Positions 23,343-51,838 of a DNA stretch of 64,000 bases are shown here, piece after piece; position 1 is the stretch's first letter, and every line of letters begins with the position of its first letter. This DNA comes from a phage. Under the pieces are notes generated by a model. It was not told where the DNA came from and made no database searches. It saw only the letters and a list, made by a program, of their open reading frames with translations. Where the stretch lies: assembly GCA_024683775.1 (NCBI GenBank), contig GCA_024683775.1_4106.1. One strand, 5' to 3'. The translations under genes were made by a program, and so were the position numbers.

Positions 23343-23594
23343 ATGAAAGTACTGACAGAACTAGAAATGTATCATAGATTTAATAAGTACTATCATTTAC
23401 TTAAGCCTATACAGAGGATTAAATGTCCATTTGAAGAGAAACAGGTTTTAATCTATGAGCACAAGTTCTTTGTATCATTAGGTACAGATCAACAAGAGTA
23501 CTATTTGACGTTGTACTTGATTACATTAATAGATTTCATTCACTATAAAACCACACAATCTAAACAAGCTAATAAAGAGAAATATGAAAACTAA
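23343..23594 (+). CDS. family A small protein (83 aa)
   Basis: Family A motif LGTDQQEYY; start trimmed to MKVLTELEMY right after previous stop. Confidence 0.65.
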   Translation: MKVLTELEMYHRFNKYYHLLKPIQRIKCPFEEKQVLIYEHKFFVSLGTDQQEYYLTLYLITLIDFIHYKTTQSKQANKEKYEN

Positions 23595-23922
23595 TATAAA
23601 ACTCAAGGTATATAAATCATTTGCAAGTACATACATCAAATGCCATACATGTAACTCTGTAATGGACTACAAAGGTAAGCCATTTGCACTTACTTATGAT
23701 AATACAAGAGGTTTTTATATATCTTTTGCTGATTACAAATATAACATGTACGAACACATTGACATTGAAGATTTAAGTACTTTATCTGAAGAGGAATACT
23801 TTCAAGAATCATTAGTATGGGATTTGGAGTTTCCTATGCCATTAGTACATAAAATGATAGTACTAATAAAAGAAACTAAACCTGTACCTAATGGTTATGA
23901 AGAACACATTATTGAGTATTAA
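23584..23922 (+). CDS. family B protein (112 aa)
   Basis: Motif EEEYFQESLVWD; near-identical tandem duplicate of CDS 23937. Confidence 0.7.
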   Translation: MKTNIKLKVYKSFASTYIKCHTCNSVMDYKGKPFALTYDNTRGFYISFADYKYNMYEHIDIEDLSTLSEEEYFQESLVWDLEFPMPLVHKMIVLIKETKPVPNGYEEHIIEY

Positions 23923-23936
23923 TATATAAGGTAACT

Positions 23937-24278
23937 ATGAAAACTAATATACAACTCAATGTATACAGTTCAGAAGAACATACATATATCAAATGCAGTC
24001 TATGTAAAGATGTAATGGACTACAAAGGTAAGCCATTCACAATTACTTATGATTCTGATGTTAATGATTTATATATATCATTTCTTAATTACGAAAAGAA
24101 AATATACAAGCACGTTGATATTAAAGATTTAAGTACTTTATCAGCAGAGGAATACTTTCAAGAATCATTAGTATGGGATTTAGAATTTCCTATGCCATTA
24201 GTACATAAAATGGTAGTCCTAATGAAAGAAGCTAAACCGGAGTTTAATGGTTATGAAGAACACATCGTTGAGTACTGA
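23937..24278 (+). CDS. family B protein (113 aa)
   Basis: Motif AEEYFQESLVWD; SD AAGGTAA upstream. Confidence 0.7.
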   Translation: MKTNIQLNVYSSEEHTYIKCSLCKDVMDYKGKPFTITYDSDVNDLYISFLNYEKKIYKHVDIKDLSTLSAEEYFQESLVWDLEFPMPLVHKMVVLMKEAKPEFNGYEEHIVEY

Positions 24279-24281
24279 ACA

Positions 24282-24497
24282 ATGAAAATATTATCATACG
24301 AAGATTACCGCAAGCTTCGCGGTATTTTGCGACCAGAAATTCAAAGAATTAATTCTCTTCCTATATCTAATGCAGAATGTTCAGTACTGAAAGATGAGTT
24401 AATATTAAAACACACAGTAGGAACTAACTATCAAGCTGATAGTGTTCGATATCTAATTTGGGGATTAATATGCATAGTAAAGGAAAAACAAGCTTGA
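24282..24497 (+). CDS. family A small protein (71 aa)
   Basis: Family A motif VGTNYQADS. Confidence 0.7.
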   Translation: MKILSYEDYRKLRGILRPEIQRINSLPISNAECSVLKDELILKHTVGTNYQADSVRYLIWGLICIVKEKQA

Positions 24498-24522
24498 CAG
24501 TACTTTTCATTACTGATATAGT
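24494..24522 (+). promoter_or_regulatory. candidate sigma70-like promoter (TTGACA-17-TATAGT)
   Basis: Hexamers read directly upstream of CDS 24554. Confidence 0.5.
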
Positions 24523-24553
24523 ACCTGTACGTTAATCATTAGGGTAGAAAATT

Positions 24554-24799
24554 ATGTTGAATTTTTTAAATTTCCTTATCGTCTTGTGTATTGTTCTTGG
24601 GATTGCACCATTTGTATTGTATTTCATGGATTCCGATGAAATGCAAAAGATGAATTGCACAAGGACAGGACAGAGTAGAGAAGAGACGATTCTTATGCCT
24701 GTTACCGTTATTGTTAATAATATGCCCATTACAAACATGGTCCCTACCCTAACGACAACGTACCAGTACTCTTGTACAGACGGAGAGAGGTGGAGATAA
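24554..24799 (+). CDS. small membrane protein (81 aa)
   Basis: ORF; SD AGGGTAGAAA upstream; hydrophobic N-terminal helix FLNFLIVLCIVLGIAPFVLYF. Confidence 0.6.
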   Translation: MLNFLNFLIVLCIVLGIAPFVLYFMDSDEMQKMNCTRTGQSREETILMPVTVIVNNMPITNMVPTLTTTYQYSCTDGERWR

Positions 24800-25122
24800 T
24801 GCGTAAGTTCAATTGTATTGTACGTAAGAATTCATGTTACATTGTAGTAGCTGATTTTAATACAGGTTCTGGGTTGAAGATATTTGAGTACAGAAAATGC
24901 AATAATTCTTTTCATTGGAAATTGGGTGCAAGAAAAGCAAAAACAATTTCAGTACCGAATTTATGTTCTATCTCTGAAGAAGAAGAGTTTCAGTACTTGT
25001 TAGTACATGATGATTCTTTAGGATTTACATTCGAAGATATGAAGGAAGTACAAAAGCAGATGATTGCACATTGTCATCTTCCACCGAATTTTGTTCAACG
25101 CGTATGTGAATTCTACATATAA
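24799..25122 (+). CDS. family B protein (107 aa)
   Basis: Motif EEEEFQYLLVHD; SD GGAGAGAGG upstream; trimmed from track ORF 24772. Confidence 0.65.
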   Translation: MRKFNCIVRKNSCYIVVADFNTGSGLKIFEYRKCNNSFHWKLGARKAKTISVPNLCSISEEEEFQYLLVHDDSLGFTFEDMKEVQKQMIAHCHLPPNFVQRVCEFYI

Positions 25123-25131: not shown

Positions 25132-25443
25132 ATGAAATTTAATATAGCAAAAACATCGAGTATATGTATTTTTGGTTATGCAGAAGAGTTAGGTGATATT
25201 GACATTCTTTTGTACAAAAAGGATGGTGTTATGCATTTCAAGTACCAGGATGAAGAGGCAGACAATTATCTTTTACCTAATTTAGTACAAATGCAGGAAG
25301 AGGAATTATTCCAGTACAGCTTAATATACGACATTGATATTTGCACGATGCCAGTATTAATTAGTATTCAAAAAGTGATGCTCGATATGTATGATAATTT
25401 AATACAAGGTACAGCAGGGATAACCAAACATGTCAATATATAA
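25132..25443 (+). CDS. family B protein (103 aa)
   Basis: Motif EEELFQYSLIYD. Confidence 0.7.
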   Translation: MKFNIAKTSSICIFGYAEELGDIDILLYKKDGVMHFKYQDEEADNYLLPNLVQMQEEELFQYSLIYDIDICTMPVLISIQKVMLDMYDNLIQGTAGITKHVNI

Positions 25444-25636
25444 GGATTTACCTAATGCATATATGTTGAAGTATAAAGAGTTTATTAAAGATGTATATGT
25501 AGATCCGTTCAATATAAAATTATCAGAGTTCGATGTATCATTTTATCTAGGGACAATAGTACAGGAACAATACGTTGATAAGCTCATAAGGTGCATGAAA
25601 AATGAGATTCGATGGAGATTAGATGCAAATGTATAA
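25430..25636 (+). CDS. family A-like small protein (68 aa)
   Basis: Motif LGTIVQEQYVDKLI; located inside array B. Confidence 0.65.
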   Translation: MSIYKDLPNAYMLKYKEFIKDVYVDPFNIKLSEFDVSFYLGTIVQEQYVDKLIRCMKNEIRWRLDANV

Positions 25637-25880
25637 AAAGATAGATGCTTATTTGTATGCTTCAAAGTACAGGGATTTTTGTTTACGAGGGGGAGAGGAA
25701 GATTTCGCTCTGAGATTATCTGAATTTAATATGTTATTTTATCTTGGTACAAAAGAACAAGAAGATACAGTACAGAAATTTCTCAATCATCTTGTACAAA
25801 AAATTAATATGCAAATTTTGATGCTTAAGTTACAGAATGAGATAAATGAATATGAATCCAGAAATAGTTCAGGATCTTAA
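25623..25880 (+). CDS. family A-like small protein (85 aa)
   Basis: Motif LGTKEQEDTVQKFL; located inside array B. Confidence 0.65.
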   Translation: MQMYKKIDAYLYASKYRDFCLRGGEEDFALRLSEFNMLFYLGTKEQEDTVQKFLNHLVQKINMQILMLKLQNEINEYESRNSSGS

Positions 25881-27150: not shown

Positions 27151-27451
27151 AATGCTGTATACATTAACATTAATATATGTAGAATTAGAATCCGATTCAG
27201 ATGCATGGAATTTGGTTAAAGAGGTCGATACCAATCAATGGTACATGGCAAATTTAGACGAACATGTTGTTACGGATTATTTTATAGATTTTAATACATT
27301 ATCTGAAGAAGAATTTTTCCAAATGCAATTGGTGGTTGACATGTACGGACATGACATGGTAACATTAAGAAATATACAGAAAGTCGTTAATGAATTCCAA
27401 AGCAAGAAAGATTATGAGGTAGGAGCGTATTATGACATCGACGTACAGTGA
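27140..27451 (+). CDS. family B protein (103 aa)
   Basis: Motif EEEFFQMQLVVD; tandem duplicate of next gene. Confidence 0.7.
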   Translation: MKYKMLYTLTLIYVELESDSDAWNLVKEVDTNQWYMANLDEHVVTDYFIDFNTLSEEEFFQMQLVVDMYGHDMVTLRNIQKVVNEFQSKKDYEVGAYYDIDVQ

Positions 27452-27798
27452 AAGCAATGAGTACAATAGTTATGATATATAAAATGCTTTATACAGTATC
27501 GGGGATATATGTAGAATTAGAACCCGATTATCCAGATGGATGGAATTTTATTAAACGCTCCGAAAGAAATACATGGCACATGGCACATTTGGATAATGAC
27601 GTAATATTAGACAATTTTGTGGATTTTAATACATTATCAGAAGAAGAATTCTTCCAAATGCAATGTGTGCTTGACACAAAAGGATTTGATGTGCTATTAT
27701 TAAAGAATATACAGAAAGCTGTTAACGAATTAATATCCAATGACGAGTTAGGCAAAGTGAGGCTGTTCCATGATCTCGAAGTACCGTACCAGCAATGA
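27448..27798 (+). CDS. family B protein (116 aa)
   Basis: Motif EEEFFQMQCVLD; true start may be the internal Met at 27472. Confidence 0.65.
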   Translation: MKAMSTIVMIYKMLYTVSGIYVELEPDYPDGWNFIKRSERNTWHMAHLDNDVILDNFVDFNTLSEEEFFQMQCVLDTKGFDVLLLKNIQKAVNELISNDELGKVRLFHDLEVPYQQ

Positions 27799-28667: not shown

Positions 28668-29143
28668 AGTTCAGTTTAGATGCAGCCTTTAAATTTGTTC
28701 ACAAAATTGAAACAATATATCGTACATTATGTGCAATAACATCAGTATCAAAAGAGTTTGATGTTGGTGAAAGGTATCAGGTGTGGAATAATTCATTTTA
28801 TAATAAAGAACATTCTGCGACGGCATTTTATATTTTAGCATTTAATCCCAGCAATTGTTACCCAGAGAAGCATGAACGTTATCCAAATGACGACATGTGG
28901 TTTGAGTACAAAGAAGATGCTGATATGTCGTCAATTGTAGTTCCTGATGATTTTAATGCACAAGATTTAACAGAAGAGTGGTGGTTCCAGCAGAATTTAG
29001 TACATGATGATATTGATTTATTTTTCTATATTGCATTTAAAATGCTTTATCACAACAATATAGTTAAAGAAAGTTTATCGTTTTCATGTCTATATATTGA
29101 TGATTTGTACAATGAAATTCAAATAAACATGCCTGTATCGTAA
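28646..29143 (+). CDS. family B protein (165 aa)
   Basis: Motif EEWWFQQNLVHD. Confidence 0.7.
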   Translation: MHRMSDLEFSLDAAFKFVHKIETIYRTLCAITSVSKEFDVGERYQVWNNSFYNKEHSATAFYILAFNPSNCYPEKHERYPNDDMWFEYKEDADMSSIVVPDDFNAQDLTEEWWFQQNLVHDDIDLFFYIAFKMLYHNNIVKESLSFSCLYIDDLYNEIQINMPVS

Positions 29144-29161
29144 GATATGGGCTTTTTTTGT

Positions 29162-29190
29162 TTGACACGAGTACAAATGCATGGTACAAT
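29162..29190 (+). promoter_or_regulatory. sigma70-like promoter (TTGACA-17-TACAAT)
   Basis: Hexamers read directly; internal promoter within array B. Confidence 0.6.
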
Positions 29191-29215: not shown

Positions 29216-29791
29216 ATGGAAAATTTTAAAATACCAGATGATTTCAATTCAGTACAAGAGATTGTACACAAGGTTCATTATATTTTTAATGAATTAATTA
29301 TTGCCAATTCATCCGGTATGCAAATTGAGTTAAAGGATATTGATAGAGAAGAAGTTTTTTTGGGTTCCCCAAATTCAATCATTCCTTTTTATGGACAAGA
29401 TCGTTTATGGTTCATGAGAGATACCCCAATTGACAAATACAAAATACAAACAAAATCAGAGTTTTATTCTATTTTTGAATATCTTAATATTACATTACAA
29501 ACACAAGATATAAATGCAATAAGTGCCATGAGTGCTGAGGAATATTTTCAGTACAGTACATTGCATAGTCCAGAAGAAATCTTTGTTGTTATGCTCGTTG
29601 CAAAATTAAGTACAGTTGATTTTGGGACGTACCCAAATAAATCATTCAAGATTATTATTCCTGCATTCGTTGATCTTTATGATTTCATTGTGCACAAGAA
29701 AGAAAGTACAGTGTACGATATGTATCGTTCAAATATCAGTTTATTTGCATCAAGTGCAGTAAATGCAGTGATTACAGGGGAATTAAAATGA
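29216..29791 (+). CDS. family B protein (191 aa)
   Basis: Motif AEEYFQYSTLHS; SD TAAGGAGA upstream; trimmed from track ORF 29147. Confidence 0.7.
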   Translation: MENFKIPDDFNSVQEIVHKVHYIFNELIIANSSGMQIELKDIDREEVFLGSPNSIIPFYGQDRLWFMRDTPIDKYKIQTKSEFYSIFEYLNITLQTQDINAISAMSAEEYFQYSTLHSPEEIFVVMLVAKLSTVDFGTYPNKSFKIIIPAFVDLYDFIVHKKESTVYDMYRSNISLFASSAVNAVITGELK

Positions 29792-30396
29792 ACATAGACC
29801 AATTAATGAAGTACAGTACAAGTGCAATCACAGTGCTAAGTAAAGCATTAGATTCATTCAATGCTAAGTACCCTGAAGGTTCAGAGTTAAATATTCCTTT
29901 TACCACAGAGGGGATTGTTGATACGTACATTGTAAACATCAGTAGTACAGGTATTGTTTTGAAGCAAAAGTACGGCGAAAGTGAATATTATGGATTGAAG
30001 CTGGATAATATTTCAGGAGAGAAGACACCTTATGAGTTTTGGGTTCCGAATAACATTGAGTCATGGAAAACAAATATTAATAAGAGAGACGAAAGAAATT
30101 TACCTCTTGTACAAAATAATGAAAAAAGAATTGATGTATTTTATTATTACAGTACAGCCCAGTTTCCAGAAGAGATTTATTTAAATTCAGAGGTGCATGA
30201 AGATATTGAATCATTTTTCTTTCAGTTATCATTGGTACAGGATATCATGCCTGTGCAAATGTTCAGGGATGAAATAAATTTAGCGAAAGAGATTTCGGAT
30301 ATGTTACCTGAATTTAGTGTTCTTTATGGTAGTAGAGCTTTACCTGAAAATGTTTACAAAGAATTTATTTCCATTGTTAAAGGGTTGAATATATAA
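29788..30396 (+). CDS. family B protein (202 aa)
   Basis: Motif ESFFFQLSLVQD; ATGA overlap. Confidence 0.7.
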   Translation: MNIDQLMKYSTSAITVLSKALDSFNAKYPEGSELNIPFTTEGIVDTYIVNISSTGIVLKQKYGESEYYGLKLDNISGEKTPYEFWVPNNIESWKTNINKRDERNLPLVQNNEKRIDVFYYYSTAQFPEEIYLNSEVHEDIESFFFQLSLVQDIMPVQMFRDEINLAKEISDMLPEFSVLYGSRALPENVYKEFISIVKGLNI

Positions 30397-30397
30397 T

Positions 30398-30592
30398 ATG
30401 ACCGCCTATGATATCAAACAAAGGCATACGAAGTTTGATTTGTTCACATACCAATTCCACAATGATATAGTGAATTTTAACATCAATGCGTCATTGCATC
30501 CTACATCACAAGATGATTTTGACAACAGAGTGCTTAACATCGTGGTGCTTTTGTGTTATAATCATTTCAGTGAATATTTTAACACAAGATAA
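30398..30592 (+). CDS. hypothetical protein (64 aa)
   Basis: ORF between family B genes; no motif. Confidence 0.5.
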   Translation: MTAYDIKQRHTKFDLFTYQFHNDIVNFNINASLHPTSQDDFDNRVLNIVVLLCYNHFSEYFNTR

Positions 30593-30605
30593 GGTTGAGG
30601 CACAC

Positions 30606-31124
30606 ATGTATCAGGCCAAGTACAATACATCATATGCATTTGCACACAACATTTTGAAGATCATCAAAGCGTTAGAGGGTGGATTGCTTAGTCATAAGTA
30701 CACCAAAGTAGGTGACAATTGGTTCAGAAATGATGATGAGTTCAGAAGTCATAAGATTGTTTACAGCAATAATTACAGTGCTAATTACCTTCAGGATGTT
30801 GCTATGTGCTTCGAATACGTGTTACAGTTCAGGGGTTCCATCAGTCCTGAGCTAAGAGAACACATGTACATTCGATACCTACCAATGCTTAAGGATGAGA
30901 AAACAATATTCAATTCAGTACACCACAGAGTACGAGAGAGAACATTCAGGGATATTTTAGAAGATGAAGCTGCATATTTCCAGCAATCATTGATTGATGC
31001 TCCTGATGTGTTACAGATGCAGAATTTGTATAATGTATTAGATGCGAACATCGATACGGATATCTTTTTTTCCTTAAGTGATTATGAAACATTTTTGGAA
31101 GATTTAAAGGAAATAGGATTATGA
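30606..31124 (+). CDS. family B protein (172 aa)
   Basis: Motif EAAYFQQSLIDA; SD AAGGTTGAGG upstream; trimmed from track ORF 30486. Confidence 0.7.
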   Translation: MYQAKYNTSYAFAHNILKIIKALEGGLLSHKYTKVGDNWFRNDDEFRSHKIVYSNNYSANYLQDVAMCFEYVLQFRGSISPELREHMYIRYLPMLKDEKTIFNSVHHRVRERTFRDILEDEAAYFQQSLIDAPDVLQMQNLYNVLDANIDTDIFFSLSDYETFLEDLKEIGL

Positions 31125-31465
31125 GTAGATTTTCAGTTTATATAGTAAACGTCAGTAAAGATGGTAGTTTAATTGAATTTGATGTAGTTGATGACAATGA
31201 TAATTCATATGGTATTAAGGTACAGGACAATGATGTACAGTTCAGTACAAGGACAAATTTTGAGAATCCAGTCCAAGTTCCGAATTTCATAGAAGATGAA
31301 GCTGCACGATTCCAATACGAAACGGCCTTTGATAATTTAGCGATGCATATTATTATGCAACAAAGTTTAGTTCAATTGCTTCAGGTATTCAGACAAAATA
31401 TATATGTACATGAAGTGTCGATTAATGGCATTCAAAGTTCCGTTTTGTTCGGTACAAATATGTAA
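31121..31465 (+). CDS. family B protein (114 aa)
   Basis: Motif EAARFQYETAFD; ATGA overlap. Confidence 0.65.
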   Translation: MSRFSVYIVNVSKDGSLIEFDVVDDNDNSYGIKVQDNDVQFSTRTNFENPVQVPNFIEDEAARFQYETAFDNLAMHIIMQQSLVQLLQVFRQNIYVHEVSINGIQSSVLFGTNM

Positions 31466-31475
31466 GGAAAGTACA

Positions 31476-32030
31476 ATGAGTTCAATGAGTTTATTAGATA
31501 CATTAGAAAAAGACAGAAGTGCCATTAAGAGATTAAAAAATCTTGTCCAGAGCATTGCGAACAACGCTGAGAAGTTCAGTGACAATCTTAGTATAGGTGA
31601 TATAACCAGTACAGGAATAAAATCCCTGAAGTCAGATTTATTAATTCATAAGGAAGATAAATTATTATTTGTATTGAGTTCAGATTTAATGGTTGCAAGT
31701 AATGGTTTCAATTCGATATCAACACAAGATGGTAGCACAGGATTATATCTATCACAGGGTGTCCAGACGAACGAACAAAAGTGTTTTAGTTCAGGAGTAC
31801 AGAATCCCTTTAAGTTCAGTACAGAACAAGCCACAGAGCTTTTAGAGGCTTCAGAAGAGATGTTATTTCAGTACAAAACGGTTCATACAGATTTTGAATT
31901 ACGATGCATGTACGCTGTTAAGCATTATGTTCAGGAGTTCGAGAATTTAAGTTATCTTTTAGTTCGAACGAATACAAAGAACATTGGTGCATTAGAAGAT
32001 TACATTTCAAAAGTTGTTAAAGGGTGCTAA
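31476..32030 (+). CDS. family B protein (184 aa)
   Basis: Motif EEMLFQYKTVHT; SD TAAGGAAAG upstream; trimmed from track ORF 31404. Confidence 0.7.
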   Translation: MSSMSLLDTLEKDRSAIKRLKNLVQSIANNAEKFSDNLSIGDITSTGIKSLKSDLLIHKEDKLLFVLSSDLMVASNGFNSISTQDGSTGLYLSQGVQTNEQKCFSSGVQNPFKFSTEQATELLEASEEMLFQYKTVHTDFELRCMYAVKHYVQEFENLSYLLVRTNTKNIGALEDYISKVVKGC

Positions 32031-32758: not shown

Positions 32759-33172
32759 TTGGAGTTTACCTTATTAATTACAGTAGAGATTATTATGGAA
32801 ATAAAATATAAAGAATTTTGTATAGGGACATGGATGTACACGGGTGAGTTGATTACGTGTTGTAATTTGTACAAAGGTGATTTAAACTACACAAGGGGCA
32901 AGGTTATAAAGTTCTGGAATTCACAATTTTATTTAATGGATCTTGGTACTGGATTTAGTTGTAAAGCAACCGATATGCTGGACTATACCTTAATGGATGA
33001 TGCTGCACTATTTCAGGAGTCATTAGTATTTGACAAGAAGTACATCTGTACATTAGAAGAGATTGTTGAAATCCAGCGTAGAATTAAATGCATTCACAGG
33101 GAATGTATAGATAAATGGTGTAAAACTGGTGAAACTAATTTTAGTAATCATTTCAATCTAGGGGAAGAGTGA
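32759..33172 (+). CDS. family B protein (about 137 aa)
   Basis: Motif DAALFQESLVFD; track start is TTG, first ATG at 32795; N-terminus aligns with paralog 33169 from the TTG. Confidence 0.6.
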   Translation: MEFTLLITVEIIMEIKYKEFCIGTWMYTGELITCCNLYKGDLNYTRGKVIKFWNSQFYLMDLGTGFSCKATDMLDYTLMDDAALFQESLVFDKKYICTLEEIVEIQRRIKCIHRECIDKWCKTGETNFSNHFNLGEE

Positions 33173-33525
33173 TGGAATTTGATTTTGTAATATCAGTACA
33201 TTCTTTTAAGAACAGTTTTCAGTACTTTTGTAATTTAAACAAAGGTGATTTGATGCACAGTGCAAATGAGTATATTCATTTCACTCAGGGTAAATTTACA
33301 TTCATTGATTACAATTCATTACAGTATCCGCATCAGGATATGCCGGATTATACAGTAATGGATGCCGCTGAACTATTTCAGGAGTCATTAGTATTTGATA
33401 AGAAGTACTTGTGTACATTTGAAGAAGTTATTGCAATACAAAATGAAATGAAAGAGTATGCTTCTTTGAATAAAGGCAATGTCAGTATTAATCAAGAATA
33501 CAAATTCAATATAGGAATTACATAA
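33169..33525 (+). CDS. family B protein (118 aa)
   Basis: Motif AAELFQESLVFD; ATGA overlap. Confidence 0.7.
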   Translation: MMEFDFVISVHSFKNSFQYFCNLNKGDLMHSANEYIHFTQGKFTFIDYNSLQYPHQDMPDYTVMDAAELFQESLVFDKKYLCTFEEVIAIQNEMKEYASLNKGNVSINQEYKFNIGIT

Positions 33526-35327: not shown

Positions 35328-35329
35328 TA

Positions 35330-38164: not shown

Positions 38165-38333
38165 TATTGCTAAACTATTCAATATATATTCTTCTAAAAT
38201 GATGCAAACCGACTCATATAGTACTGAATTCAAAGAATTAAAAGTACTGATGTATTTGGGCACACAGTATCAGGAACAAGTTGTTAAAGAATATATTGAT
38301 TCTTTACAGAAGGATATCCGTTATGTACAATGA
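38142..38333 (+). CDS. family A small protein (63 aa)
   Basis: Motif LGTQYQEQVVKEYI; inside array B. Confidence 0.7.
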   Translation: MKIIDQDDIAKLFNIYSSKMMQTDSYSTEFKELKVLMYLGTQYQEQVVKEYIDSLQKDIRYVQ

Positions 38334-40704: not shown

Positions 40705-40730
40705 CACCCTCCAAATCTTTGTGATATAAT
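40701..40730 (+). promoter_or_regulatory. sigma70-like promoter (TTGACA-18-TATAAT)
   Basis: Hexamers read directly upstream of CDS 40764. Confidence 0.55.
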
Positions 40731-41722: not shown

Positions 41723-42077
41723 TACAACAACAATTCAGTACATGACGGATGGCAATGATTGCTTTGCTTCAAGATATGAATTCATCAAGAACCATTTCGT
41801 AACCTATATCCCTGAATATAATCAGTTTTATCTACAGATTTACCAAAATGATTCATATATGAATGAGATATATTCTGAAATAAAAATCCCTGATTATAGT
41901 ACTTTATCAGAAGAGGAATTGTTTCAGGAGAGCACTGTCAATACTGAAGATGTGTACGAACTAATGGAATACCAGAAGGTACTTAAATATTTCCATGAAG
42001 TTCAGGATATACAAATGGATAGTGTTAAAACGTGGAATTATAACACATACGAGGTAAATTATGTTCGAAATGATTAA
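41715..42077 (+). CDS. family B protein (120 aa)
   Basis: Motif EEELFQESTVNT. Confidence 0.7.
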   Translation: MHNTTTIQYMTDGNDCFASRYEFIKNHFVTYIPEYNQFYLQIYQNDSYMNEIYSEIKIPDYSTLSEEELFQESTVNTEDVYELMEYQKVLKYFHEVQDIQMDSVKTWNYNTYEVNYVRND

Positions 42078-42474: not shown

Positions 42475-42956
42475 TGAACCGAAAGTACAGAGAAACTATG
42501 AAGTTCGCTAAGGAGTGTTTAGAGACAATTGATTTCATTTTCGATAACAAAGACTCATTGGGCCGTCACTTCGTAATTACAAAGAAAGAAGATAAGAGAT
42601 ACAAGTGTCAACGATTAGGATACAGTATTGAGTTCTCCTTAATGATTGATGGCATGATAAACTCCTTATATGAATGTGGTAAGACTTATTACATTTCATT
42701 TAGATCTTGGAGTGAACGTGTCATGTTCTTGACTCCAAATGGAGTTGTATATCCTTTTCTTGATGATTTATCAGAAGAAAGTTACTTTCAAAATAGTTTA
42801 ATTTACACAGAAAAAGAACTCAAAATGCTATTCATTATGTCGTACTTTAAAAAGTACTGCAAATTTAAATCATTAGCTTTTGAGATTTCTGCAATGAAAG
42901 TATTCATTAAAAATGTAAAAGAATTAAAGAGGATTTACGATGTACATAGAAAATGA
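42462..42956 (+). CDS. family B protein (164 aa)
   Basis: Motif EESYFQNSLIYT followed by LFIMSYFKK. Confidence 0.7.
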   Translation: MERLMNRKYRETMKFAKECLETIDFIFDNKDSLGRHFVITKKEDKRYKCQRLGYSIEFSLMIDGMINSLYECGKTYYISFRSWSERVMFLTPNGVVYPFLDDLSEESYFQNSLIYTEKELKMLFIMSYFKKYCKFKSLAFEISAMKVFIKNVKELKRIYDVHRK

Positions 42957-43482
42957 TAATGTAAAATGCATTTCCGACATTTGTATAAAATTAATGAAAA
43001 TTTTCATTAACCCAAAATACAAGACTCGTTCATTACGTCATGACATTGATGAACATTGTGTAATTACTATTCTAGGTAATATGCTTGATGTAAAGTACGA
43101 TGGTAAATTGTTATTCGGTGTCCGAGAAGAGAAGATAGATGATGTCTTCTTTTCTCCTAAAGATAAGTTTGAACCTTCTGATTATAAAGTAATTATTCGT
43201 GATGATAGTATCTACATTAGCAGTGATCATTCAAATTACGTCGAACAGATATACACTGAAAATGTTGACTACAACCATGAACTACTAGATTTACCAACAT
43301 CAGACATAGATATGGAGAGAATCAAATTTTCATTATCAAATAATGAGTACTTAGGTATACAAACATATTATGCACTTCAGGGAAAGATTCCACCTGCGAT
43401 GTATATAAGAATTGAGATTGGTAATGTATTCAATGACAAGGTTATATCAATTGCTGATAAAATATTGAAGGTACAATTATGA
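42940..43482 (+). CDS. hypothetical protein (180 aa)
   Basis: ORF in array; no family motif recognised. Confidence 0.55.
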   Translation: MYIENDNVKCISDICIKLMKIFINPKYKTRSLRHDIDEHCVITILGNMLDVKYDGKLLFGVREEKIDDVFFSPKDKFEPSDYKVIIRDDSIYISSDHSNYVEQIYTENVDYNHELLDLPTSDIDMERIKFSLSNNEYLGIQTYYALQGKIPPAMYIRIEIGNVFNDKVISIADKILKVQL

Positions 43483-44036
43483 ATTTTACTAATTATAATT
43501 TACATAGACTTGAATTACGTCATTGTATTGCATTTGCAAAAACATTAATGTGCATCATTGATACACTATCATCTAAAACTTTTCGAAAGGATAATGATTT
43601 ATGCCTTAAAAAAGGTAAAGTACAAAAATACGATTATACAGATGAAACGTATTTTGATATCTTTTTGGGAACAAATGATAGTACAAGAGTAGGATGTTTG
43701 GGAACAGTTGGAACACATTGCTTTACATGGAATCCAAATTCAAGTACAGTACGAATTGACACCAACGATACATGTTATGCTGACCTTAGTACTGAATCTG
43801 ATTTAGAATCAGTTATGTTCCAACACATGTTAATTCATAAACCAAATGAAATTCTTTATCTTGTTGCTTTTAGTTATCTCTTACAAAATTATAAATCAGG
43901 TTTTACTATTGAAACTGATATCGATGAGATTATGGATGAGATTCCTAGTTTAAAAGATATTCTTGAAGAAAAAGATTTCTATCAGGACTTTAGAGATTTA
44001 TACAACATGCACAGGGAGTTATCTGATAATGAATAA
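43479..44036 (+). CDS. family B protein (185 aa)
   Basis: Motif ESVMFQHMLIHK; ATGA overlap. Confidence 0.65.
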   Translation: MNFTNYNLHRLELRHCIAFAKTLMCIIDTLSSKTFRKDNDLCLKKGKVQKYDYTDETYFDIFLGTNDSTRVGCLGTVGTHCFTWNPNSSTVRIDTNDTCYADLSTESDLESVMFQHMLIHKPNEILYLVAFSYLLQNYKSGFTIETDIDEIMDEIPSLKDILEEKDFYQDFRDLYNMHRELSDNE

Positions 44037-44547
44037 AGATGATATTCTAATCAGACTAATCAACAGTCTGTTAAAATTCGTGAATAGTGATAGCGATACA
44101 CACAATGTAGGTGACATTGAATTCAAATCATTTGGAATGTACGGTGAGGACAAAACATATTATGCATCAATGAAATTCCAAGATTATTATGAAATGTTAA
44201 TTGCGTTAACATACGAAGATGTGGACCCAAGATGGAGTTCCAGTATTTCTCTGTCGAGAATGGTAATTCGTAGTAAACATCGTTACATTTCGTCAAAGAA
44301 TACTCCTAATTTGTTTGATATTGTTTTGAATGAAAATACCAACCCCCCATCTAAACATGATATCGTACCTTTAACTGATGAAGTACAGTTTCAATTGAGT
44401 ACCATTTGTGATGAAGATGTGATATCATGTATGAAAATTTACGAGAAGATTGGTAGTGATATCCCTAAGAACTATTACATAACAATAGATGGAACGTACC
44501 TCCGAGATGAGGCTCTAGCGTACATTGACAGCGTTTTACCAAAATAA
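44029..44547 (+). CDS. family B protein (172 aa)
   Basis: Motif DEVQFQLSTICD; trimmed from track ORF 43963. Confidence 0.65.
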   Translation: MNKDDILIRLINSLLKFVNSDSDTHNVGDIEFKSFGMYGEDKTYYASMKFQDYYEMLIALTYEDVDPRWSSSISLSRMVIRSKHRYISSKNTPNLFDIVLNENTNPPSKHDIVPLTDEVQFQLSTICDEDVISCMKIYEKIGSDIPKNYYITIDGTYLRDEALAYIDSVLPK

Positions 44548-44578: not shown

Positions 44579-44607
44579 TTTACATGAGCATTCAGGTGTG
44601 TTATAAT
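44579..44607 (+). promoter_or_regulatory. sigma70-like promoter (TTTACA-17-TATAAT)
   Basis: Hexamers read directly; SD ACAGGAGAAG follows before CDS 44635. Confidence 0.6.
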
Positions 44608-44634: not shown

Positions 44635-45198
44635 ATGAGTACTGAATTAATTAAAGAAATCACATTGTTGGTAAAGCATTGTTTTAAGTTCATTGATGAT
44701 AATGGTTCACGCCAGTACATTAAAGTTAATGAGAAATATAACATTAACGTCCTAAAGAATGAAACCGTTAACAGTTATGCAAACATTGAGTTAGATGTTG
44801 AGGACAAATACACAGCATTACACATCATTTCGTCCGGCGATAGAAAACAAGATTATCGTTCTACATTTTATGATGATAGTGTTACTGTTGGTTATAAATT
44901 TCATAAAAATAAAATTGCTTATAAGAATACATACACACATGAAGTAATTGAAGAGTACAATTATAAAATTAAAAAAGACGAGTACGATGTACTTTTATTC
45001 AATGCGAATCTCATACACAACGCTGGTACTGTTCGCAATCTTATGTTAGCATATGAAATTCCAAAGATTATAGAAAGAAATGAATTGATAATCTTTAAAA
45101 CTATATTAAAATTCAGTACAGAAGAATTAGAAGATCTAGTACTGGCTCTTAAGACGTTCATCAATGAACATGTACCTGTTAAATTAGAGGACTTATAA
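44635..45198 (+). CDS. hypothetical protein (187 aa)
   Basis: ORF with promoter and SD; no family motif recognised. Confidence 0.65.
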   Translation: MSTELIKEITLLVKHCFKFIDDNGSRQYIKVNEKYNINVLKNETVNSYANIELDVEDKYTALHIISSGDRKQDYRSTFYDDSVTVGYKFHKNKIAYKNTYTHEVIEEYNYKIKKDEYDVLLFNANLIHNAGTVRNLMLAYEIPKIIERNELIIFKTILKFSTEELEDLVLALKTFINEHVPVKLEDL

Positions 45199-45782
45199 TG
45201 CAAGCTGAACACATTCAAATTATGAAATTGATGCATGACATTGCAGAACTATCTGAAAAGCACAACATTACTGAACATGAGCCTATTGGAAATTATCGTC
45301 TTAAAGTTGAATGCAAATCACCATATCGTTTTGGTTCAGTAGTACTGGAGTCTTATAAAGTTTACGATTATGGAACGACAAAAAAAGGTTCATGGGATAC
45401 TATGGCAATGTATATCCGTACATCAAGGCATAGTGAGCGAATTGGTTCCATTACTCCAAACATGATATTTGTCAATGCTTTACACGAAGATATTAATCGA
45501 ATTGTTGAATCTAATTTTGATGACGTAGAGAATGATACATATTTGGAAATTCCACCAGAACTAGATCAAAGTGAAGACATTCGTGAAGCATACATTTTCC
45601 AGAGATCAGTACTTGACAACTTCAAGGAGTTTGAGTACATGATGCTTTGCTATGAAACTGCAAAAGCTATTGACACTGGTGAATTGGTAATGTATAGTAA
45701 GTTCATTAACTGTGAATCCGATACATTAAAAGAGCTACACACGGCAATCAAAAACATCAAGGATACATATGAACGCTTATAG
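45198..45782 (+). CDS. family B protein (194 aa)
   Basis: Motif EAYIFQRSVLDN. Confidence 0.65.
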   Translation: MQAEHIQIMKLMHDIAELSEKHNITEHEPIGNYRLKVECKSPYRFGSVVLESYKVYDYGTTKKGSWDTMAMYIRTSRHSERIGSITPNMIFVNALHEDINRIVESNFDDVENDTYLEIPPELDQSEDIREAYIFQRSVLDNFKEFEYMMLCYETAKAIDTGELVMYSKFINCESDTLKELHTAIKNIKDTYERL

Positions 45783-46347
45783 TTATATGACAGCCCGACA
45801 CCAACAGCTATATGATATCAGTACAAAGATGCTACACATTGTTGGTAGTGCCAAAGAAATTAACAAACATTACCTCATTCGTGATGTGTCATTTTCATCT
45901 AAATGTTTGTCCAAAGAATATTACGATCACGGTATTCTTACTATTTCTGGTGCCAGGAATATTTGTATTGTAAAAAATAATAGTAAAAGTAATGAAGAGT
46001 GCGAGATTAGATCCGATATCCAAATTAATGATGATGGAAGTTTTTCACACCATCCATTTCATATTAGTACTGTTGGTGTTTTATATAATATTAAAGTACT
46101 ATTCGGTGATAAAGAGTATGAGTTAAAAGCTATCAATCCAGAATCAAGTACAGTTGATGAAGAACTGTTTCAGATGAGCACCGTTATACCTGAAGAGGTT
46201 CTTAGTACTGTTGTTTTTTGTAGTTTAATTTATCACACATACAAAAAGAACCAGTTCGATTTCCACATTTTAGGAACGTACATCTTCAATACTTTGAATG
46301 TTGATCGTTTAAAAGCATTAAATGCAGCAATGGATAAGGTGCTATAA
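45769..46347 (+). CDS. family B protein (192 aa)
   Basis: Motif DEELFQMSTVIP. Confidence 0.7.
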   Translation: MNAYSYMTARHQQLYDISTKMLHIVGSAKEINKHYLIRDVSFSSKCLSKEYYDHGILTISGARNICIVKNNSKSNEECEIRSDIQINDDGSFSHHPFHISTVGVLYNIKVLFGDKEYELKAINPESSTVDEELFQMSTVIPEEVLSTVVFCSLIYHTYKKNQFDFHILGTYIFNTLNVDRLKALNAAMDKVL

Positions 46348-46775
46348 TGACAAGAGATGAATGCTTATACATATGGGATATAATTGAAACTACACTTTCA
46401 AATCCAGAAAATTATAAAACAAAAAAAAGACAACGACACAAAATATGGATAGATTTGTTCGTTGAGGGCATACACGCAGTGACTATTTGGGATTCACCGA
46501 GGGCATCATCATCTACTCTGTTGGACAATGAATGCATTGATTGCATTAATTCCAATTTTCATCTCCACGGTACTACATATTTCGGCACATTTCTGGATAT
46601 TGAAAGTAAAGATGATATTGATTCACTTGCTTTACAATACGGAGTACTGTATGATACTAAATTAATTTACGATTTAGTACTAGCTTCTTATGTGTATAAA
46701 TTAATGATGAAATACAATCACATTTCTGTATCAGTTTATACTAAGGATATTCTTTCATTAAGAGACAAAACATGA
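46347..46775 (+). CDS. hypothetical protein (142 aa), possibly divergent family B
   Basis: ORF; weak motif DSLALQYGVLYD. Confidence 0.55.
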   Translation: MTRDECLYIWDIIETTLSNPENYKTKKRQRHKIWIDLFVEGIHAVTIWDSPRASSSTLLDNECIDCINSNFHLHGTTYFGTFLDIESKDDIDSLALQYGVLYDTKLIYDLVLASYVYKLMMKYNHISVSVYTKDILSLRDKT

Positions 46776-47278
46776 GTTTATTAAATGCACGAGAATTAGT
46801 TGAGATGTATGAGATCTTATCTTCATATAAAAATTCCCCAAAAGATGTAATTCTAAACAAAAAGTTCCATGTCAGTGTTGAACATATAACAAATATAGAT
46901 ATGATTTCTTTGGTGGAAAGTAATAAGTCAGGTCTGGAGCGTGATATCATGCGTTTGATTTATATTCCTAAACCATCATATACTAATGATAGTACTATTA
47001 GCAATGAGACATTCATGTATAGTCCTGGTACGGATTCTACTATAGTATCGCTGTCAAATAAATCAATGGATACTTTCCAATTCATCTATACCAGTACTGA
47101 TAACATTGAAGAAAATGAATTCCAAAACAATACATTAAGTTCATGTAGTAGTGTTATAACCTTTATGTCATATCTGTGGTCAATCAAATCAAATGCAATT
47201 GTATATAGTTCTAATTACACACAAGATAGTATTGTTGAATCATTTAAAGTTCTAAAGGAATACTATGAAAATAACTAA
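46772..47278 (+). CDS. family B protein (168 aa)
   Basis: Motif EENEFQNNTLSS; ATGA overlap. Confidence 0.65.
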   Translation: MSLLNARELVEMYEILSSYKNSPKDVILNKKFHVSVEHITNIDMISLVESNKSGLERDIMRLIYIPKPSYTNDSTISNETFMYSPGTDSTIVSLSNKSMDTFQFIYTSTDNIEENEFQNNTLSSCSSVITFMSYLWSIKSNAIVYSSNYTQDSIVESFKVLKEYYENN

Positions 47279-49008: not shown

Positions 49009-49582
49009 AGAAATAGAAAGTAAAATTAAGTACTTTAAAGATATTAAAAAACTTTGGGAAAAGTATAAAATTGATTATCAATTCCAAGATGATGATACTG
49101 TTCAAAACATTGATATTAATATTCGTGTAAAGTTCAAGAATGGCAATTATGGCGAAGTTAAATTGAATGCTATTGGTATATTCCTTAAGGATTATGATGG
49201 TTCTTCACTCGCTCAATTCGATTTCACACCTGATCCTGATGATATGTTATTGAGTGAAGTCAATGCATATGACCTTGAGATGTTTAATGGTAAACCTTTA
49301 CTATTCCGCTTATCAGATGAATGGGATGAGATTTACTACACATACAAAGATGGTGTGATTCGAGACGCAAATGATGAAGTAGTAAATGATATGGAAGAAC
49401 GTCTATTTCAAGAATCATGTGTGTCATCGGAGTCATATACATATCAATATCTACTTGACATGTTCGATTTGTATAGTAAAATAGATTCAGAAATGAGTAC
49501 ATTGGGTATTCATTATCTTACAATCAACGACTTTGCACAACTTGAAACAGCGGTTAAAGCCCTTGTCAAAGTACTGAAATAG
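48998..49582 (+). CDS. family B protein (194 aa)
   Basis: Motif EERLFQESCVSS. Confidence 0.65.
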   Translation: MNFKEIESKIKYFKDIKKLWEKYKIDYQFQDDDTVQNIDINIRVKFKNGNYGEVKLNAIGIFLKDYDGSSLAQFDFTPDPDDMLLSEVNAYDLEMFNGKPLLFRLSDEWDEIYYTYKDGVIRDANDEVVNDMEERLFQESCVSSESYTYQYLLDMFDLYSKIDSEMSTLGIHYLTINDFAQLETAVKALVKVLK

Positions 49583-49591
49583 GAATGAATA

Positions 49592-50005
49592 ATGAAACTG
49601 TATCATGCGAGTACTGTAAAAATTGATAACTTTTATATCCCGTATGGTGGCCTTCATATGGGTGGCAAACACAGTGCTTTAGAAGCTGCATTACGCAAGC
49701 TGAGAAGCCCACTGAACGTTGTTGACGCTGATACAGTATACTTACATACCTTAGAAGTTGATGTTGATAACGTGCTTCTGTGGACGGATATGGGCAGTGA
49801 CGACGAATGGCGTGGAGTGATTGAGTACTGCGAAATTAACGGCTATGATGCAGTTCAGTACAAAAACGATTACGAACCAGATACAGTTCCTAGCTATATG
49901 ATTTGGGATACGTCTAAGGTTCGCATTGTTGAAGTTGATGCTATGCACATGGATGACGCAGAAATGATCATCGAAGATTTCCTTGATGAATATGAAGGTG
50001 TATAA
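49592..50005 (+). CDS. hypothetical acidic protein (137 aa), compositionally distinct
   Basis: ORF; SD TAGGAATGAATA upstream; visibly higher GC than neighbours; no family motif. Confidence 0.65.
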   Translation: MKLYHASTVKIDNFYIPYGGLHMGGKHSALEAALRKLRSPLNVVDADTVYLHTLEVDVDNVLLWTDMGSDDEWRGVIEYCEINGYDAVQYKNDYEPDTVPSYMIWDTSKVRIVEVDAMHMDDAEMIIEDFLDEYEGV

Positions 50006-50523
50006 TGATTGAACCTATGACAGTACTAGCACGTACTAAATTATTATTGAAGATTGCTGAAATATTCACTGTTCTTATGTACAATAATAAAGACATAAAT
50101 GACTTAGATATTAAGCAACCGTGGCAAATTACAAAGTTCACGGCGTTCCACCGATTGTCATATAATGGTGAAACTGTTCTTGATTTTAATCCAAAAGCCA
50201 AGTTCGTGAATTACGCTGCATTATATGGATGTAATGGTGGATTAACAAATGACTTCACTAAAATAAAAGTACAATCAGAATCATTAGAATTTAATGACTT
50301 ACTATATCCAGAATTTAAGTTAACTGAAGAATCACTATTTCAGTACTCACTAATTATAAAAGATGTATATGATCTTGAGTACTACAAAGAGTTAGTAGAT
50401 ATTTTTAAGAATACTCGACTTTCAAAAGATATTGTGATATTCTGGTATGTTGAGTATGTTACAGAGGAATTGCTTGAAGAATTTCTTCTAAATATGACAG
50501 CAATCAAGGAGAAGTTATGTTAG
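50005..50523 (+). CDS. family B protein (172 aa)
   Basis: Motif EESLFQYSLIIK. Confidence 0.7.
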   Translation: MIEPMTVLARTKLLLKIAEIFTVLMYNNKDINDLDIKQPWQITKFTAFHRLSYNGETVLDFNPKAKFVNYAALYGCNGGLTNDFTKIKVQSESLEFNDLLYPEFKLTEESLFQYSLIIKDVYDLEYYKELVDIFKNTRLSKDIVIFWYVEYVTEELLEEFLLNMTAIKEKLC

Positions 50524-50990
50524 ACATTTTAGGAAACATCGATACAGCAAATTATTTTATTCAAGATGCACTGTTCAATACAGTACAGAAAGGGTTGGAT
50601 GTACGATGTAATATCCATCAGGGAGATGGGTATTTTGTTGATATCACTGAAACACGCAAGAACGTGTTCAATTTAAACATTACCACATTAGCACGTCAGA
50701 ACATTGCACGCATTCTGGTCAATAAAGATGAAATAGTTCTTCGTTATAATTCCAAATTCTTGTTCACATACAAGAAGAAGACTGACATGTTCAGTACTAA
50801 TTTGTTTGATGAACCCTTCAATCTGGAAGACTTAGAAGCAACTTTCTTTACACAGAACACTATGCTGAAATTCAATGATGTTGAATTTTCATCAGAAGTA
50901 ATGTCTGAAACACTACAAATGGTTAAGGTAGTATTCTATGCTTTTCAACAGTTTAACGAAGAACGAAACAAGGTTAACAACAACAGATGA
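50517..50990 (+). CDS. hypothetical protein (157 aa), possibly divergent family B
   Basis: Weak motif LEATFFTQNTML. Confidence 0.55.
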   Translation: MLDILGNIDTANYFIQDALFNTVQKGLDVRCNIHQGDGYFVDITETRKNVFNLNITTLARQNIARILVNKDEIVLRYNSKFLFTYKKKTDMFSTNLFDEPFNLEDLEATFFTQNTMLKFNDVEFSSEVMSETLQMVKVVFYAFQQFNEERNKVNNNR

Positions 50991-51351
50991 ACTAATCGCG
51001 GCGATGGGAGCCAATGAGAAATACTTCAATGGGATTCATTTTTTTAAAACAGATCTTAGTGAAAGTAAAGTACTATATGTGTATGGTTCCCAGTACTGCA
51101 TTGTTACAAAGCACCCCGATGCGATTTCACTAAAATTTAATACTTATTCAAAAAACTTCTTGACGATTAATAAAAGCAATGTTACTATGTCTGGTATAGG
51201 GAATCAGGTTGTTGAGATTCCTTTGGACTCAATTGATTCTATTGAGTTCTTTCAATACGAGTGCTTAGGTGTTGATTTTGGTACTGTCAGTACTGAATCT
51301 ATGCGAACATTAATTAATTTACTTAAAGGTAAAGTTCATGCTTTTAACTAA
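50938..51351 (+). CDS. family B protein (137 aa)
   Basis: Motif SIEFFQYECLGV; start overlaps previous gene by 53 nt, alternative ATG at 51004. Confidence 0.55.
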   Translation: MLFNSLTKNETRLTTTDELIAAMGANEKYFNGIHFFKTDLSESKVLYVYGSQYCIVTKHPDAISLKFNTYSKNFLTINKSNVTMSGIGNQVVEIPLDSIDSIEFFQYECLGVDFGTVSTESMRTLINLLKGKVHAFN

Positions 51352-51838
51352 TTCGATGAAGTATTCATTTAAAATTATCAAAGAAATACTAAATGGATCT
51401 AAAAATCATAGTGGGTCTTCCTTTACTAGTGACCAGATCCAACACAGTACAAAGGATTGTACTGTAATCTTTGGGTTACATAGTCTGCGTTTGACAATAG
51501 TAAATAATATTGATAACACAGCAATTGTAATCACCCCATGTCATATTCAGAATGATACTGGTGTATACTTACACCACATGGGGACTGTATTCTACATCTT
51601 CAATACTGAAGAAAACATTGTTAAAGAATACAACACACTCAATGTTGATGCAGGTGAGTTATTCCAATTGAGTACTGTCAATGATTGTAACTTCAGTGAC
51701 AATGCAGAAGTACTTCCATTGTTTCTAAGTCTTCTCAATAACATGGAAAAACTAACCACTGCATACAACAAAAGTGACGTACCGCAAGCAGTATTGAATA
51801 TCACCGAAGCAATGGAGAAATACAAAGCTGTGACCTAA
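51338..51838 (+). CDS. family B protein (166 aa)
   Basis: Motif AGELFQLSTVND. Confidence 0.7.
   Translation: MLLTNSMKYSFKIIKEILNGSKNHSGSSFTSDQIQHSTKDCTVIFGLHSLRLTIVNNIDNTAIVITPCHIQNDTGVYLHHMGTVFYIFNTEENIVKEYNTLNVDAGELFQLSTVNDCNFSDNAEVLPLFLSLLNNMEKLTTAYNKSDVPQAVLNITEAMEKYKAVT

Follow-up and report, generated by a model that had tools for sequence, protein, structure and literature searches.

The window analysed here, a stretch of 64,000 nucleotides from a phage (GenBank assembly GCA_024683775.1, contig GCA_024683775.1_4106.1), contains a 28 kb tandem array of homologous genes, named family B, at positions 23584-51838 of the + strand. A short EExxFQxS segment followed by an amphipathic helix characterizes the 40 firmly assigned members, and their small, mostly acidic products are predicted to adopt a fold that matches no solved structure. 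The array may encode an early, cytoplasmic and diversified set of host-binding proteins acting in host takeover or anti-defence, a role to which about an even chance is given.

Megablast comparison has placed the window at the left end of the genome (about 350 kb) of an Asteriusvirus, in the PBECO4/121Q group of RaK2-like jumbo coliphages, with Turkey3 and fEgEco12 as the closest matches (98.5% identity). The direct terminal repeat of fEgEco12 was experimentally confirmed as 20,993 bp (PMC13070987); its end maps to about position 17,556 of the window, and the array begins after it. Every gene of the region is carried by the + strand, and the GC content changes from about 38% in the terminal repeat to 30-34% in the arrays of family B and of a neighbouring second family (family A). 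The exact boundaries of the family B array are its first and last members, which coincide with the limits proposed in the sequence-only reading, an earlier annotation made by a model without database searches. Coding density reaches 97%, and 45 of the 64 gene junctions overlap, 4-nt overlaps among them. The same interval also holds five copies of family A and about 14 unrelated small open reading frames (ORFs), so that the consecutive or near-consecutive genes of the sequence-only reading form a real one-strand run, but an interspersed one.

Family membership

Jackhmmer searches from several seeds were run against the 370 six-frame ORFs of the window that have 40 or more amino acids. They converged on 40 family B members, all of them on the + strand and within 23584-51838, with no minus-strand member among the 370 ORFs. 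In the MAFFT alignment of these 40 proteins the F and Q of the core were the sole invariant non-methionine columns. The members of family B are homologous. The strict motif [DE]E.[YFL]FQ.[SN][LT][VI], originally written as the family consensus, was matched by 12 ORFs only. The looser pattern [YFLWM]FQ.[SN] was found in 30 + strand ORFs of the array, in one minus-strand ORF and, outside the array, in a single + strand ORF, the family member 62921-63610. The three examples first quoted for the core were located in the ORFs starting at 23584 (EEEYFQESLVWD), 35330 (SEEYYFQNSTVY) and 36989 (EEGYFQGSTVFN).

Profile-profile comparison (hhalign) of the remaining array ORFs added 37432-37968 at 94.5% probability and six further candidates with lower values (listed below); all 32 control ORFs taken outside the array (32/32) remained below 5.2%. 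None of the candidates that were used in turn as jackhmmer query reached family B. Family size was accordingly set at 40 firm members, or 41 with the likely one, with an upper limit of about 48, somewhat lower than the initial count of about 50 paralogs (46 plus about 6 divergent ones). The longest-ORF coordinates probably overextend about nine N-termini when compared to the fEgEco12 annotation, from which the probable starts given below were taken.

Firm members of family B (all assigned by jackhmmer; additional evidence in brackets):
23584-23922, +, short form, 112 residues, EEEYFQES (70% identical to neighbour copy)
23937-24278, +, short form, 113 residues, recent duplicate of 23584
24772-25122, +, short form, start probably 24799
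25132-25443, +, short form, 103 residues
26590-27150, +, long form, 186 residues
27140-27451, +, short form, 103 residues, 54% identical to the following copy
27448-27798, +, short form, 116 residues
27770-28339, +, long form, 189 residues
28646-29143, +, long form, 165 residues
29147-29791, +, long form, start probably 29243
30486-31124, +, long form, ORF of 212 residues, N-terminus uncertain
31404-32030, +, long form, start probably 31476
32759-33172, +, short form, start probably 32795
33169-33525, +, short form, 118 residues (structure model)
33525-33890, +, short form, 121 residues
33820-34236, +, short form, start probably 33892
34420-34890, +, long form, 156 residues, MSxxxAL / LWYF subgroup, net charge -20 (alignment)
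34887-35327, +, long form, 146 residues, MSxxxAL / LWYF subgroup (alignment)
35330-35821, +, long form, 163 residues, net charge -31 (alignment, structure model)
35796-36239, +, long form, 147 residues, MSxxxAL / LWYF subgroup (alignment)
36236-36550, +, short form, 104 residues
36550-37023, +, long form, 157 residues
36989-37435, +, long form, 148 residues, EEGYFQGS
38281-38877, +, long form, start probably 38323
39476-39835, +, short form, 119 residues
39825-40163, +, short form, 112 residues
40114-40704, +, long form, start probably 40171
40764-41243, +, long form, 159 residues
41240-41722, +, long form, 160 residues, EEMYFQGS
41715-42077, +, short form, 120 residues
42061-42474, +, short form, 137 residues
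42462-42956, +, long form, start probably 42474, the single clearly basic member (isoelectric point, pI, 9.2)
43479-44036, +, long form, 185 residues, motif variant ESVMFQHM
43963-44547, +, long form, start probably 44029
45769-46347, +, long form, 192 residues
47265-47846, +, long form, 193 residues
47858-48409, +, long form, 183 residues
48998-49582, +, long form, 194 residues, weaker support (hhalign 38%)
50005-50523, +, long form, 172 residues
51338-51838, +, long form, 166 residues, last of the array

Divergent and isolated members and candidates:
37432-37968, +, likely divergent member, 178 residues, EEQCFQLS (hhalign 94.5%, motif aligned)
46772-47278, +, candidate divergent member, 168 residues (hmmsearch E 4e-4, hhalign 66%, jackhmmer not reciprocal)
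42940-43482, +, candidate divergent member, 180 residues (hhalign 54%)
29788-30396, +, candidate divergent member, 202 residues, ESFFFQLSLV (hhalign 50%)
31121-31465, +, candidate divergent member, 114 residues, EAARFQYE (hmmsearch E 0.02, motif aligned)
45198-45782, +, weak candidate, 194 residues (hhalign 25%)
50938-51351, +, weak candidate, 137 residues (hhalign 22%)
46347-46775, +, weak candidate, 142 residues, LALQYG variant (hhalign 13%)
62921-63610, +, isolated member, 229 residues, 11 kb downstream of the array (jackhmmer E 1.5e-8)

A subgroup sharing both ends had been suggested for 34420-37435 and 40764. The alignment showed the N-terminal MSxxSAL helix in these ORFs, but the C-terminal WYF(K/N) in only the four ORFs located at 34420-36239.

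Several other candidates were considered and discarded. The long non-member ORFs of the array (38868, 44635, 48370, 49592, 50517, 25846 and 28326) were examined as a third family or as hidden members, and none of them reached family B, the sole link among the long non-member ORFs being that of 45198 to 44635. The 773-residue protein P0035, which with 13 matches to the core had resembled a repeat-protein relative, contains an unrelated tandem repeat (MYRVTFQHPLILQDP...) and its match is spurious. A single superfamily of families A and B, both with an aromatic-Q motif followed by a helix, was also rejected (hhalign 0.5%).

Predicted fold, selection and distribution

Two length classes were distinguished, a short one of about 100-140 residues (15 members) and a long one of about 145-215 residues. 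AlphaFold2 models were built from the family alignment for the long member 35330-35821 (predicted local distance difference test, pLDDT, 80.9; predicted template modelling score, pTM, 0.79) and for the short member 33169-33525 (pLDDT 88, pTM 0.83). In both models two C-terminal helices pack against a 5-6-stranded antiparallel sheet: the sheet is followed by a short helix with the EExxFQxS segment (the first of the two), a long amphipathic helix and a last strand, and the long form has one additional helix at each terminus. Model confidence was highest in the motif helix, after which the hydrophobic helix comes. The distance from the N-terminus to the conserved segment, which is predicted to be helical, is 58-163 residues. 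The helix-like hydrophobic segment noticed earlier is thus present, but as a buried amphipathic helix and not as a transmembrane one; no transmembrane-grade segment was found in any member, except in one probably spurious N-terminal extension. The description of the N-terminal halves as highly variable was correct in part, most long members having an N-terminal amphipathic helix in common.

The median pI of family B is 4.9 and the median net charge -7.6, with values of -20 to -31 reached in the 34420-37435 subgroup. With regard to a uniformly very negative surface, as in the DNA-mimic anti-restriction proteins of the Ocr, ArdA and Arn type, other members were near neutral and one had a net charge of +7.7. 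Family B proteins are soluble, mostly acidic polypeptides of 100-200 residues with a confidently modelled alpha+beta fold that matches no solved structure.

Searches for characterized relatives agreed with the earlier statement that no described domain could be recognized. Only three isolated sub-threshold Pfam matches were obtained with all 40 members, the NCBIfam profile search gave no matches, PADLOC gave just two isolated matches (E about 0.006-0.009), and the best E value against PDB-sequence profiles was 0.82. The 40 members are scattered across 24 PHROGs, each of "unknown function". Foldseek comparison with viral models (BFVD) matched only uncharacterized proteins of 121Q, RaK2, Serratia BF, Yersinia fHe-Yen9-03/04 and GAP32. 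Structure prediction and profile search, both proposed as checks in the sequence-only reading, therefore led to a confident fold and to no characterized domain for the core. The GenBank labels "amidohydrolase 3" (phAPEC6 gp447c, 9922-10299 of the fetched locus L005) and "DNA ligase" (A4_348, 17064-17600 of the fetched locus L011) sit on family members; both proteins carry the family motif and match the family hidden Markov model (HMM). Since no member in the window matches amidohydrolase or ligase Pfam families, these labels look spurious.

Family B arose largely by local tandem duplication. The nearest paralog is located at most two family ranks away for 20 of 36 members, all on the + strand, and recent pairs retain 70%, 54% and 47% identity, most paralogs being just 25-35% identical around the core. 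Collinear 1:1 orthologs were found in 121Q for 30 of the 37 members of the non-overlapping gene set. These 30 pairs had a median identity of 75%, a nonsynonymous substitution rate (dN) of 0.143 and a ratio of nonsynonymous to synonymous rates (dN/dS) of 0.25, none of them above 1 (gene-wide Nei-Gojobori method, NG86); the flanking genes compared with 121Q gave dN of 0.07-0.08 and dN/dS of 0.16-0.22. Each member is kept under purifying selection. Within the orthologs, the motif and the helix (dN 0.127, dN/dS 0.17) differed from the part preceding the motif (dN 0.202, dN/dS 0.30): constraint is strongest on the EExxFQxS segment and on the amphipathic helix after it, and the beta-sheet and N-terminal part vary most.

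These data also bear on the explanation that the array consists of decaying duplicates or gene-calling artefacts without function, as might be expected from AT-rich DNA (30-34% GC), which yields many ORFs, and from the fact that every member is annotated as a hypothetical protein. The dN/dS of about 0.25 across 30 ortholog pairs, the dense coding of a single strand (97%, with 4-nt overlaps), the lack of minus-strand matches, the confident fold predictions and the conservation across genera argue against it; selection and conservation data refute this explanation, which has practically no probability left.

In the more distant Asteriusvirus A4, the copy number (37) and the gene order are retained, with collinear orthologs of 36% median identity (range 24-97%), when the upstream and downstream flanks are 78% and 71% identical, respectively. 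Considering this ortholog divergence against conserved flanks together with the selection data, the array is a divergence hotspot of functional genes.

Family members were counted with the family HMM in the fetched loci of other phages, with no minus-strand match in any of these loci:
fEgEco12, 40 members
phAPEC6, 39 members
121Q, 37 members
A4, 37 members
Klebsiella RaK2, 29 members
Salmonella 7t3, 16 members
Cronobacter GAP32, 4 members
Yersinia fHe-Yen9-04, 2 members

A word-indexed search of 5.8 billion proteins retrieved only Asteriusvirus proteins, some labelled as E. coli from phage-sized contigs. A HMMER scan of 1.84 billion cluster representatives gave 128 clusters at E <= 0.001, among them RaK2 ORF422 and one spurious repeat protein. 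The dam-cytidylyltransferase block lies directly downstream of the array in every phage compared, with rnlA and pseT further downstream wherever the fetched stretch extended that far; two 7t3 members and 62921-63610 of the window are outliers placed between cytidylyltransferase and rnlA. The 121Q ortholog of 62921-63610 is 91% identical and lies near rnlA, and the two 7t3 members are just upstream of rnlA. No such array was found in the cytidylyltransferase neighbourhood of PA5oct-like Pseudomonas phages. The shared synteny and the spread over genera indicate that the family predates the split of these genera, and from the sequences compared it appears specific to RaK2-like jumbo myoviruses, with its biggest expansion in the Asteriusvirus/Alcyoneusvirus lineage. 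The term "accessory region" used in the sequence-only reading is therefore misleading, as 37-40 copies and their order are kept across Asteriusvirus and the same site is occupied in RaK2, 7t3, GAP32 and fHe-Yen9-04.

Expression setting and possible roles

Sites matching the sigma-70 promoter consensus at 11 or more of 12 positions (near-consensus promoters) were found 33 times on the + strand and 3 times on the minus strand of the window, with 2.2 +/- 1.6 in shuffled sequences. The consensus scan as a whole was not enriched (118 versus 116), the strand bias being confined to the near-consensus sites. Nine of these sites are in the array, where several occupy the few gaps between genes and one comes immediately after a terminator-like hairpin:
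24494-24522, +, near-consensus sigma-70 promoter, TTGACA-17-TATAGT, extended -10, in intergenic gap
27671-27700, +, near-consensus sigma-70 promoter, 70 nt upstream of 27770
29131-29152, +, terminator-like hairpin followed by a T-run
29162-29190, +, near-consensus sigma-70 promoter, 53 nt upstream of the likely start 29243
30534-30562, +, near-consensus sigma-70 promoter
33754-33781, +, near-consensus sigma-70 promoter
40701-40730, +, 12/12 consensus sigma-70 promoter, in the gap ahead of 40764
44579-44607, +, near-consensus sigma-70 promoter, in the gap ahead of 44635
45670-45698, +, near-consensus sigma-70 promoter, 71 nt upstream of 45769
49455-49482, +, near-consensus sigma-70 promoter

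The terminal repeat (198-16249) contains 19 near-consensus sigma-70 promoters, 10 of them perfect (12/12), each located 13-150 nt upstream of its own small gene. Each gene there has a promoter to itself and the gaps between genes have a median of 68 nt, whereas the genes of the arrays overlap.

The T4-type late-promoter octamer TATAAATA was absent from both strands of the whole window, when 13 +/- 4 occurrences were expected from dinucleotide shuffles, which suggests an active avoidance of the late-promoter sequence in this early region. In a study of the related phage CBB, RpoD-like promoters were described for early genes and a T4-like late motif for structural genes (PMC5259590). The phAPEC6 array corresponds to gp404c-gp466c, and virion mass spectrometry of this phage (62 proteins; one phage, one data set) detected nothing between gp347 and gp549, hence no array product. 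The sigma-70 promoters, the missing late motif and the virion data point to early, cytoplasmic and non-packaged products.

Packaged internal proteins, one of the functions offered in the sequence-only reading, are not supported by these results. According to this explanation the products would be packaged and ejected, and the motif would be a capsid-targeting signal or a protease-cleavage signal similar to the tobacco etch virus (TEV)/3C site E-x-x-Y-x-Q-(G/S). A short common core in otherwise variable small proteins is indeed reminiscent of the T4 internal-protein loci, and 36989 (EEGYFQGS) and 41240 (EEMYFQGS) fit the TEV consensus exactly. It is also known that phAPEC6 possesses an inner body (PMC7247149). 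However, gp404c-gp466c were undetected in the virion, promoters of early type were found and late motifs are missing, the P1' position is variable, and the complete 3C/TEV-type site is present in just two of the 40 members. The motif is internal, in a predicted helix of a compact domain whose last strand comes after it, and does not represent an N-terminal targeting or cleavage signal. Packaging is therefore considered very improbable. The TEV-consensus match of 36989-37435 and 41240-41722 is probably a coincidence, which is relevant when these proteins are purified with TEV-cleavable tags.

The preferred explanation is an early, cytoplasmic, diversified host-binding set. Host sigma-70 RNA polymerase would transcribe the array early as long, tightly packed operons starting just past the direct terminal repeat, and the products would remain in the cytoplasm, unpackaged. 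By analogy, the common two-helix core may serve as a scaffold, and the variable sheet and N-terminal face of each paralog could bind a different host protein or, alternatively, a protein of a competing phage; the paralogs would jointly constitute a diversified binding set for host takeover or anti-defence, and adaptation to host targets would account for the speed at which they diverge between phage lineages. With regard to the effector repertoire proposed in the sequence-only reading, the early, host-directed setting is thus supported (sigma-70 promoters, no late motif, soluble acidic proteins and fast ortholog divergence), the function itself being an inference. Because this function rests on analogy, the chance given to the host-binding set is no better than even.

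Several points weigh against this explanation. Homology links no member to a target, and the invariant Q and the acidic residues could mark a shared functional site instead of a scaffold. The literature searched yielded no transcriptome of a RaK2-like phage, and early timing is deduced from promoter motifs only; a transfer of timing from RNA-seq of a PA5oct-like phage was ruled out because the array is missing there. Virion mass spectrometry may miss small proteins of low abundance. At the level of whole genes no positive selection was seen, the NG86 dN/dS being below 1 in every pair, and the divergence from A4 could be due in part to recombination with distant lineages, as two neighbours are 90-97% identical. 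Moreover, copy number and order hardly change within the genus, and truly accessory anti-defence genes usually vary in presence or absence, so that a conserved collective role is possible. Papers on Avs5/JADA and reviews of jumbo phages were discarded as a guide because they concern nucleus-forming phages.

Some of these points fit a family of adaptors with a shared partner, in which the EExxFQxS helix would dock to one common partner (a host hub or a phage-encoded protease) and the variable part would pick substrates or cargo, in an F-box/BTB-like manner. The invariant F and Q and the acidic pair are all in one short helix, which is the most constrained segment, the copy number and order are kept as in a coordinated set, and in the related phage 7t3 a ClpP-like subunit is annotated some 18 kb downstream of the array (annotation only). 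On the other hand, the highest model confidence of the motif helix, together with the hydrophobic helix that follows, is as expected in a folding core, the two glutamates are not invariant and no partner was identified, so that this explanation is regarded as unlikely. In a rather speculative and still less probable version, about 45 paralogs would form a phage substrate-receptor library, the EExxFQxS helix plugging into one effector or hub (a protease, for example, or some other machine of host or phage) and the variable sheets capturing different host defence or housekeeping proteins, either as a bacterial-virus counterpart of the F-box/BTB receptors known from eukaryotes and their viruses or as a core-encoded, broad-spectrum anti-defence library.

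A low probability is likewise given to a phage-internal role, in which the paralogs would assemble together or with the phage DNA or replication machinery, for instance as acidic chaperones or DNA mimics organizing the 350-kb genome, and would be kept as a fixed set. The 37-40 genes with conserved order across Asteriusvirus, the purifying selection and the strong acidity of the proteins are in its favour, but the fall of positional orthologs to about 36% identity between flanks above 70% is unusual for parts of a conserved machine, copy number varies from 2 to 40 between genera, and the charge is not uniform, with one member of pI 9.2.

Neighbouring genes, known systems and significance

Family A comprises 31 copies of 63-94 residues, basic (median pI 8.5), with a LGTNYQE motif followed by a helix. 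Twenty-six copies are contiguous (17653-23594), from about 100 bp past the terminal-repeat boundary up to family B, and those within the family B array are at 24282-24497, 25430-25636, 25623-25880, 37946-38164 and 38142-38333. Family A copy number differs slightly even from that of the 98%-identical fEgEco12. Just downstream of the array, two ORFs of 282 residues each are located 2 kb apart (52522-53370 and 54547-55395). They may represent a further gene duplication; the annotations of 121Q, RaK2 and 7t3 include pairs of this kind, and 52522-53370, the one tested, had no Pfam match. The A4 array contains an inserted gene of 470 residues, A4_379, "methyl-accepting chemotaxis protein" (31131-32543 of L011), for which the window phage has no counterpart, and HNH endonuclease genes are found just downstream of the A4 array.

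Tandem paralog arrays located by genome terminal repeats are known in the African swine fever virus (ASFV; families MGF110, MGF360 and MGF505) and in poxviruses, where they are thought to deal with host responses, grow through local duplication and outpace the core genes in divergence. Family B has in common with them the position next to a terminal repeat, the local duplication and a divergence faster than that of the core, but no sequence or fold relation exists, its copy number is nearly fixed within the genus and not accordion-like, and the host is bacterial. Host-takeover blocks such as T4 early genes, SPO1 gp37-60, T5 pre-early genes and Kayvirus terminal-repeat genes consist mostly of unrelated genes. 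They resemble family B in encoding small acidic non-virion proteins near a genome end or terminal repeat under strong sigma-70-type promoters, but family B is a single family of 40 members, none of which matches any of their proteins. The T4 internal proteins IPI-III and those of the polymorphic IP locus have an N-terminal capsid-targeting sequence that is cut by the prohead protease, and are present in the virion. They are also variable small proteins with one short conserved segment in common, whereas the family B motif is internal and predicted helical, and its products were not found in phAPEC6 virions. MAM33/p32 proteins share with family B an antiparallel sheet packed by helices, an acidic character, and N-terminal and C-terminal helices.

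Among phages, Iyer et al. (2021, PMC7824862), who surveyed 224 jumbo phages, called the lineage-specific multiplication of zinc-ribbon genes in Bacillus phage G (about 35 copies) "unprecedented"; family B is not mentioned in their paper. Both are very large paralog expansions of small proteins in a jumbo phage; the fold of family B is different and without Zn ligands, its copy number equals or exceeds that of phage G, with 40 firm members and a further 31 genes in the second family, and its array is contiguous and conserved over several genera. The RaK2 paper stated that nearly 10% of the gene products are paralogues and said no more (PMC3622015), 22 paralogous ORFs were listed in the CBB paper, and recent Asteriusvirus genome papers do not mention family B. 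Within the literature searched, family B has not been previously described as such, and it is possibly the largest phage gene family reported so far. Tandem paralog arrays beside terminal repeats are thus a known feature of viral genomes, and family B is a new and unusually large case in a bacterial virus, with a new predicted fold.

Families A and B (31 and 40-48 copies) make up about 75 consecutive genes, around one tenth of the gene count of the phage, and in existing resources every member of both families is "hypothetical", family B being divided among 24 unrelated PHROGs. The recognition of a superfamily with a new predicted fold at one syntenic site in at least 70 RaK2-like jumbo phages, which infect Escherichia, Klebsiella, Salmonella, Cronobacter, Yersinia and other hosts, gives experiments a defined target where the annotation had only a block of "dark matter". 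The family is also a clean system in which dozens of paralogs are kept in fixed order while their sequences diverge rapidly. If the members bind host proteins, they would constitute a ready panel of natural inhibitors of enterobacterial proteins, and they may also help to set the host range of jumbo phages now proposed for therapy.

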